Shown here piece by piece: positions 20,789 through 20,953 of a DNA stretch of 64,000 nt. The notes under the pieces were generated by a model that searched no databases, was not told the DNA's origin, and worked only from the letters and a program-made list of their open reading frames with translations. The stretch is from assembly GCF_048403405.1 (NCBI RefSeq), contig NZ_CP183129.1; one strand, given 5' to 3'. Source of the DNA: Escherichia coli (lineage in GTDB: Bacteria; Pseudomonadota; Gammaproteobacteria; Enterobacterales; Enterobacteriaceae). The stretch's first letter is position 1, and the number at the start of each line of letters is the position of its first letter. Both the position numbers and the translations under genes were made by a program.

Positions 20789-20953
20789 TCACTCCACATC
20801 CTCCCTGCGTAACCCAATATCCCTCAACCGTTCATCACTCATCTGCTGTAACACTCGTCGGGTCTGCATTTGCCGCCGCCAACGCCTCACCGCATGCCAG
20901 AGTTGCACAAGTCTGATAAACGGCGTTTTGGCTTTGTTTTCGTGAAATTCCAT
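20789..20953 (-). CDS. yjiS: Small DUF1127-family protein
   Basis: 54-aa ORF absent from the supplied track, found by reading the minus strand: MEFHENKAKTPFIRLVQLWHAVRRWRRQMQTRRVLQQMSDERLRDIGLRREDVE; divergent from yjiR as in K-12. Confidence 0.7.
   Translation of the reverse strand: MEFHENKAKTPFIRLVQLWHAVRRWRRQMQTRRVLQQMSDERLRDIGLRREDVE

Follow-up and report, generated by a model that had tools for sequence, protein, structure and literature searches.

Results

A small gene lies between yjiR and a penicillin G acylase gene

The window, a stretch of 64,000 nucleotides of Escherichia coli DNA, carries the following features around the small reading frame studied here:

16863-17819, plus strand: yjiA, CobW-family GTPase (Pfam cobW and CobW_C; RefSeq)
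17807-20788, no strand: variable segment of the yjiA-yjiS slot (breakpoints against pac-less genomes)
17897-20437, minus strand: pac, penicillin G acylase, 846 aa (Pfam Penicil_amidase, E 1.3e-138; RefSeq)
20789-20953, minus strand: yjiS coding sequence, 54 codons plus TGA (translation, Pfam PF06568, RefSeq, conservation)
20954-21129, no strand: putative yjiS-yjiR divergent control region, 176 bp, six conserved boxes
20960-20966, minus strand: Shine-Dalgarno sequence GAGGAGG, 6 nt 5' of the ATG at 20953 (from sequence)
21130-22542, plus strand: yjiR, GntR and Aminotran_1_2 domains, divergent from yjiS
22786-23742, minus strand: Rpn/YhgA-family (Transposase_31) gene next to yjiR, 318 aa

The reverse strand of 20789-20953 reads MEFHENKAKTPFIRLVQLWHAVRRWRRQMQTRRVLQQMSDERLRDIGLRREDVE followed by a stop, identical to the translation given in the original prediction, which had reported an unlisted 54-aa minus-strand ORF. 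In the mechanical ORF list the frame runs over 20789-20968 (59 aa), from an in-frame ATG located 15 nt further upstream. The ORF was missing from the supplied track because both lengths, 54 and 59 aa, fall below its 60-aa cut-off. Such a cut-off hides real genes, and yjiS is present in every RefSeq annotation. A megablast search with 20400-21200 against 5,426 complete E. coli genomes found loci 100% identical to the query, where RefSeq labels the gene "yjiS: DUF1127 domain-containing protein".

The surroundings of the gene were also searched for other signals. A consensus scan of 20300-21300 detected neither a sigma-70 promoter on the yjiS strand nor an intrinsic terminator, and the folding of the 200 nt 3' of the yjiS stop is not unusual (z-score -0.6). 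A permissive Rfam search of 15000-25000 gave, near yjiS, only sub-threshold and implausible matches, those at 20951-20992 being to archaeal snoRNA models with E about 0.2. On the opposite strand, a 73-aa ORF (20724-20945, plus strand) was considered as the real gene and rejected, its frame being open in just 21 of 81 orthologous sequences.

YjiS is a DUF1127 protein

The HMM search proposed along with the DUF1127 assignment bears it out: residues 18-54 of the protein cover model positions 1-37 of 37 of Pfam PF06568 (E 2e-13; 50.2 bits, gathering threshold 23.3). The C-terminal motif that had been singled out as conserved, MSDERLRDIGL, is the conserved core of the family, and it includes the DIGL motif of DUF1127 described previously (PMC11707872); among 34 orthologues, D45 and G47 of the D45-I46-G47-L48 stretch never vary, and the conservation of L48 reaches at least 90%. 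In our alignments the core follows the pattern L35-x2-MSDE-x-L-x-D-[IV]-G-L-x-R. The description of the protein as strongly basic is equally accurate, with a pI of 11.4, a net charge of +4.7 and 11 arginines among 54 residues (20%). DUF1127 proteins are small, with a mean arginine content of about 14% (PMC12501420), a pattern that YjiS follows in both its size and its arginine content, and the breadth of the family has been documented (PMC8034643). NCBIfam has no model for the YjiS protein. In PADLOC, neither YjiS nor the Rpn protein matched a defence system, and YjiR gave only weak aminotransferase-fold matches, to SspA and DndA.

YjiS is a 6.8-kDa, arginine-rich protein, predicted to be mostly helical, in which three parts can be distinguished: an N-terminal MEFHEN, a hydrophobic/aromatic and then arginine-rich helix (aa 9-37), and the core MSDERLRDIGL. 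DUF1127 proteins are predicted to be helical, with their arginines exposed at the surface. According to PMC12501420, no experimental structure of a DUF1127 protein exists. AlphaFold, provided with the orthologue alignment, predicts helices at residues 9-37, 40-45 and 50-53 (mean pLDDT 82; no PDB relative for comparison). A PDB sequence search with YjiS gave only a chance match (E 0.19), and Foldseek of the YjiS model against the PDB gave zero matches; thus, in these searches YjiS has no structural analogue. YjiS has a hydrophobic stretch, F12-V22 (mean Eisenberg hydrophobicity 0.41), and no segment is long enough to span a membrane.

The yjiS frame is conserved across enterobacteria

A scan of one genome per species provided 80 yjiS loci, which belong to Escherichia, Citrobacter, Klebsiella, Kluyvera, Enterobacter, Raoultella, Lelliottia, Leclercia, Atlantibacter, Franconibacter, Salmonella, Samsonia and Pectobacterium. 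The lack of a DUF1127 match together with a frame not conserved in related genomes had been named as the outcome that would speak against the gene; instead, the match was found and the frame is intact in 80/80 loci. It is 53-63 codons long in all of them and exactly 54 codons long in 51, and the protein starts with MEF[HYN]EN in all but one, which begins MEFF. The frame is open in 81/81 sequences, against 21/81 for the best other frame, on the opposite strand. The median dN/dS is 0.15 (Nei-Gojobori, 562 pairs with unsaturated dS), and between genera the protein has been kept although synonymous sites have reached saturation. These substitution patterns indicate that yjiS is under purifying selection.

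Conservation is unevenly distributed along the protein. M1, E2, F3, E5 and N6 do not vary, and at position 4 His predominates, with Y, N or F in the remaining loci. Since pN in codons 1-6 is 0.007 and pS 0.83, it is the protein on which this conservation acts. By contrast, residues 7-30, first hydrophobic/aromatic and then basic, are variable (pN 0.27). MEFHEN, which lies outside the Pfam domain, is the most conserved part of enterobacterial YjiS. This goes beyond the literature that we found, and MEFHEN is not among the published mutants.

The comparison with K-12 that had been suggested was also carried out. YjiS of E. coli K-12 (b4341; WP_000394280.1) has the same length of 54 aa, is identical at 49 of the 54 residues (91%) with no indels, and its gene occupies the same position beside yjiR. 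The five substitutions (K7R, T10A, R14G, H20Q and R44K) all fall outside invariant columns; they lie in the variable N-terminal half and, in the case of R44K, beyond it. As a side observation, two short contigs labelled as Collinsella and Bacillota MAGs (L006 and L007) carry a yjiS 98% identical to that of the window, which looks like E. coli contamination or mis-binning.

Taken together, the ORF at 20789-20953 is almost certainly a functional gene, yjiS, orthologous to that of K-12. The opposite reading, that of an unexpressed frame open by chance, whose domain match would be fortuitous, could appeal to the shortness of the ORF (54 codons by length alone are within chance expectation) and to the consensus scan that gave no promoter or terminator. 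However, the Pfam score is more than twice the gathering threshold and the frame is intact in 80/80 loci despite saturated synonymous divergence; moreover, for the Salmonella orthologue mRNA, ribosome footprints and the tagged protein have been detected in published work, and a mutant phenotype has been published for E. coli. We give this reading a negligible probability, and on the conservation data it is already refuted. Nearly as improbable is that the gene is real and encodes a 59-aa protein from the in-frame ATG at 20968 (MRRQQMEFHEN...). That ATG is the first start codon past the upstream stop, and N-terminally longer versions appear in a few database entries, but it falls within the GAGGAGG of the ATG at 20953, a purine-rich ribosome-binding sequence is not apparent 5' of it, and the MEF start is found in 80/80 orthologues and in the modal 54-aa database entries. 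In the spacer alignment GAGGAG is kept across genera and the upstream ATG is not, the position being non-ATG in other genera where GAGGAG is conserved. It is because of this conserved GAGGAG, the poorly kept upstream ATG and the MEF start of all orthologues that the 54-aa product is the right one.

A spacer of fixed length with six boxes separates yjiS from yjiR

As had been noted from the sequence, yjiS is divergent from yjiR, whose ATG lies at 21130 on the plus strand, 176 bp from the ATG of yjiS. Of the 80 loci, 75 share this arrangement, in genera that range from Escherichia to Pectobacterium. In all 75 loci with yjiR, the distance between both start codons is 172-180 bp, mostly 175-178, and it holds even where YjiS identity is down to 43%. 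A spacer alignment of 76 sequences contains six boxes of the type [AG]TACAG(AT), or its complement, that are at least 95% conserved. In the window, these ATACAG/CTGTAT-type boxes are:

21123-21128: box nearest to yjiR
21103-21108: box
21085-21090: box
21061-21066: box, degenerate (ATGCAG)
21038-21043: box
21008-21013: box nearest to yjiS

Exact copies of CTGTAT/ATACAG number 4 in these 176 bp, against 0.09 expected from their density in the window. The spacing of the boxes is also kept: the first pair is 20 bp apart in 70 of 74 spacers, a distance of 30 bp separates the two boxes closest to yjiS in 72/72, and from the start of the last box to the yjiS ATG there are 59-65 nt, in nearly all cases 60-62. 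The boxes were also considered as LexA boxes and rejected. The half-sites are alike, but the CTG...CAG spacing is N20, and that of an SOS box in the LexA consensus is N10. In a UV tiling-array paper, yjiS comes up only as a gene next to other transcripts.

YjiR combines a GntR winged-helix domain (Pfam E 1.2e-15) with an aminotransferase-like PLP domain (Aminotran_1_2, E 1.9e-38) that contains the SSFSK lysine motif, and on account of this architecture we classify it as a MocR-type regulator. Members of the MocR family typically regulate their divergent neighbour through repeated half-sites containing TGT (PMC5320631). The six-box spacer is probably the operator of YjiR. We infer that YjiR would control yjiS through the boxes, and it probably also controls itself through them. 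The MocR regulon survey (PMC5320631) does not mention yjiR, yjiS or DUF1127, and the literature searched gave no description of YjiR binding, of its operator or of any YjiR target. In K-12, genomic SELEX placed an RpoD holoenzyme peak in the yjiR/yjiS spacer, for which weak promoters were proposed (PMC3946193).

The Salmonella locus, the only one with full flanks and without yjiR that we found, has zero boxes upstream of yjiS. Because it lacks both yjiR and the ATACAG boxes, the regulation of yjiS in Salmonella must differ, and an induction of the SPI-2 type has been reported for Salmonella yjiS (PMC11707872).

On the other side of yjiR, in the gap between its stop and the Rpn gene, 22695-22737 (plus strand) gave a sub-threshold Rfam match to the sRNA ES036 (CssrF), with 30.3 bits against 37.6 and E 0.0086.

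yjiS borders a slot in which pac is one alternative filling

The 2.98-kb variable segment contains only pac, its upstream region and a downstream hairpin. On the left, the slot is framed by yjiA, present in 5382 of the 5426 genomes, which is convergent with yjiS and lies 2.97 kb downstream of it; pac is on the same strand as yjiS, 351 bp downstream. The original prediction had placed the right-hand edge of a pac insertion at yjiS. The edge is confirmed, as alignments to pac-less genomes begin at 20789, the last base of the yjiS stop, and a direct alignment with K-12 gives the same right breakpoint; at the other end, similarity breaks off at about 17806, among the final four codons of yjiA. The word insertion does not hold, since pac is an alternative cassette in a known slot. 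This filling is found in about 1,070 of the 5,426 complete E. coli genomes (20%), and in K-12 the slot holds yjiT/yjiV, mcrBC, symE, hsd and further restriction genes. The replacement of the K-12-type restriction cluster by the pac segment has been stated for E. coli W (PMC3032704), and the immigration control region (ICR) is known as the variable segment between yjiS and yjiA (PMC3874165, PMC3874153, PMC2481252). In our comparisons yjiS is a framework gene of this region, as similarity between differently filled strains ends there. The similarity ends at the stop codons of yjiS and yjiA because selection keeps both genes intact, and only cassette exchanges that spare them would survive.

The neighbourhood of yjiS and pac extends beyond E. 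coli. In four Kluyvera species, pac is also located downstream of yjiS on the same strand (L031, L032, L034 and L049, at about 4900-8159 of these loci); in K. intermedia it lies 0.8 kb past the yjiS stop. Between E. coli and Kluyvera, pac is 86% identical in amino acids and about 78% in nucleotides, including about 150 bp upstream (window 17897-20594), and the yjiR-yjiS DNA is about 75% identical. Because the divergence of pac resembles that of yjiR-yjiS, the linkage of yjiS and pac is probably old and not a recent import. These sequence comparisons suggest that it predates the split between E. coli and Kluyvera or was exchanged as a block. In K. sichuanensis at least, the DNA between yjiS and pac contains ORFs that resemble a LysE-type exporter and an AraC-type regulator, as read from the sequence and not from a domain search.

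No intrinsic terminator was detected in the yjiS-pac gap (20438-20788), so read-through from yjiS into the co-oriented pac is possible. The region upstream of pac contains an 11-bp inverted repeat (20648-20658 / 20676-20686) and the sequence TAGATCACATT, which resembles half a CRP site. Between the convergent stops of yjiA and pac, 17857-17883 forms an 11-bp perfect hairpin (CCCTCATATTC / GAATATGAGGG), inside the pac-specific cassette and without a canonical T-run on either strand. On the far side of yjiR, the Rpn gene is intact in the window, whereas in K-12 its counterpart (yjiP/yjiQ) contains an internal stop and carries a pseudogene annotation. YjiP has been linked to RecA-independent large replacements (PMC4498929).

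yjiS is lost or truncated in part of the E. coli population

Full-length yjiS together with the spacer is present in 3,728 of the 5,426 complete E. coli genomes; the full-length gene is absent from about 31% of them, which makes yjiS dispensable. About 1,270 genomes have no yjiS match at the sensitivity used, and roughly 420 keep only the 3' 91-93 nt of the gene, at about 87% identity. In the truncated loci of strains PAR and FDAARGOS_1301, codons 1-23, the spacer and yjiR have been lost through a deletion, and mdtM is absent as well. The annotation of E2348/69 gives yjiS 42 aa and lists yjiR as a pseudogene. The truncated or short yjiS loci in our set are:

L003, 6001-6093
L004, 7001-7091
L005, 4001-4129

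These loci point to a second recurrent breakpoint inside yjiS. Thus, the gene is decaying in some lineages and is intact in the window.

Compared with K-12 and other Escherichia, yjiS is the most divergent piece of the yjiS-yjiR block (87-93% nucleotide identity, against 96-98% for most of yjiR). Between Escherichia lineages, YjiS is 81-91% identical in amino acids and YjiR 96-99%, with the divergence of YjiS concentrated in residues 7-30. This would fit both the nearness of a recombination hot spot and a loose constraint on these residues.

Discussion

E. coli has a single DUF1127 protein, YjiS, which has recently been described as a brake on the PhoR/PhoB phosphate response. In K-12, mutation of yjiS speeds up phosphate uptake and causes over-expression of pstS. 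Binding of YjiS to PhoR was detected by bacterial two-hybrid, though for a single orientation, and directly between the purified proteins in a Far-Western assay; and in an Agrobacterium mutant deprived of its three small DUF1127 proteins, YjiS restores the repression of pstS (PMC12501420). Salmonella YjiS fractionates with the inner membrane, from which high salt releases it, and has an amphipathic N-terminal helix; its pull-down recovered mainly inner-membrane proteins, including the kinase SsrA, and no RNA partners, and single substitutions of arginines or in DIGL left the phenotype in place (PMC11707872). It seems fairly likely, by analogy with these experiments, that YjiS of the window is a peripheral membrane protein on the cytoplasmic side of PhoR that damps the Pho regulon. 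Its hydrophobic/amphipathic N-terminal helix would hold the protein to the inner membrane on the cytoplasmic side, where the protein would bind sensor histidine kinases directly. The target in E. coli would be PhoR, and YjiS would hold down the pst/Pho genes for phosphate uptake. Membrane association, PhoR binding and the Pho phenotype are transferred here from the K-12 and Salmonella experiments on the strength of the 91% identity. If so, the presence, the allele and the regulation of yjiS bear on the phosphate physiology of this strain.

We could also speculate that yjiS and yjiR form a fixed module, in which YjiR, sensing an amino compound, switches yjiS and in this way couples that signal to PhoR and phosphate uptake. 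We put this forward tentatively, as a reading that has nearly as much for it as against it. The box array offers a direct route to what controls yjiS and to what YjiR senses.

Two other views of the function of the gene have to be weighed against a role at PhoR. YjiS could be mainly an RNA-binding protein, acting through its arginine-rich helix in sRNA maturation or mRNA stability as CcaF1 does, with the Pho effects being secondary. It shares its Pfam domain with CcaF1 of Rhodobacter, which binds RNA (PMC8034643), its 20% of arginine and pI of 11.4 would suit such a role, and both proteins complement the same Agrobacterium mutant, which argues for overlapping activities. However, CcaF1 is co-transcribed with the sRNAs that it processes, and nothing comparable lies downstream of yjiS, where the DNA is strain-specific from the first base past the stop and no Rfam RNA is found; in addition, the Salmonella pull-downs gave no evidence of RNA partners, and YjiS and PhoR bind directly in the Far-Western assay. 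We consider this view unlikely, though not negligible. It is far less probable that yjiS, or its 3' end, belongs to the machinery or the target of cassette exchange, as a recombination site or as a partner of the Rpn protein or of a defence system. Both boundaries of the slot fall at gene 3' ends, those of yjiS and yjiA, an Rpn nuclease gene is located at a distance of 1.8 kb, and a short imperfect inverted match, GGAGGATG ... GGGCGGCGT, is present near both junctions (17777-17799 and 20769-20804, with an internal spacing of 6 and 13 nt, respectively). But the second half of the junction match is in cassette-specific DNA missing from K-12, and matches of 8-9 nt, the only repeats common to both junctions, are near chance expectation between two GC-rich stretches of 140 bp, so we rejected them. 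YjiS has no match to a PADLOC defence model, the yjiS-yjiR pair is kept in many genera whatever lies downstream, and homologous recombination in conserved flanks, together with selection for intact genes, would give boundaries at stop codons. A brake on PhoR thus remains the reading that we prefer for YjiS.

Earlier publications already cover the gene and its family, its location at the ICR boundary and the replacement by pac. Beyond the literature that we found are the spacer of fixed length with its box array, the conservation of MEFHEN and the yjiS-pac linkage common to E. coli and Kluyvera.

Comparison with known systems

The closest known system is that of E. coli K-12, and identity, the MEFHEN N-terminus and synteny place the protein of the window in the same orthologous group. 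In K-12, yjiS has the same divergent partner, yjiR, across a spacer that is 98% identical, and is likewise the right framework gene of the ICR. The DNA differs completely from the first base past the stop, which gives yjiS a different 3' untranslated region, and downstream lies pac in the window and yjiT/mcrBC/hsd in K-12. YjiS of Salmonella Typhimurium (PMC11707872) is, as here, a DUF1127 protein of 54 aa that starts with MEF[HY]EN, has a hydrophobic helix at its N-terminus and contains the DIGL core; the Salmonella sequence that we compared, from S. enterica subsp. diarizonae (L075), is about 54% identical. In contrast to the situation proposed here, its partner is SsrA, which is absent from E. 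coli.

More distant are the alphaproteobacterial members of the family. SDP1-3 of Agrobacterium tumefaciens contain the same Pfam domain, bind PhoR and repress pstS, and E. coli YjiS complements the triple SDP mutant (PMC12501420), although the proteins are only about 24% identical to YjiS. The alphaproteobacterial SDPs consist almost entirely of the domain, without the enterobacterial N-terminus formed by MEFHEN and the hydrophobic helix. CcaF1 of Rhodobacter sphaeroides (PMC8034643) is also a small, arginine-rich DUF1127 protein; it is an RNA-binding protein of 71 aa, transcribed together with the CcsR sRNAs, whose maturation it assists, whereas Rfam found no linked sRNA genes of this type downstream of yjiS.

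Finally, MgrB and SafA differ from YjiS in that they are integral membrane proteins, whose target is the periplasmic or transmembrane part of PhoQ; a transmembrane segment is missing from YjiS, salt detaches the Salmonella protein from membranes, and YjiS is unrelated in sequence to MgrB and SafA. Both nevertheless resemble YjiS in being proteins of about 50 aa that bind a histidine kinase and thereby tune a two-component system (PMC12501420).
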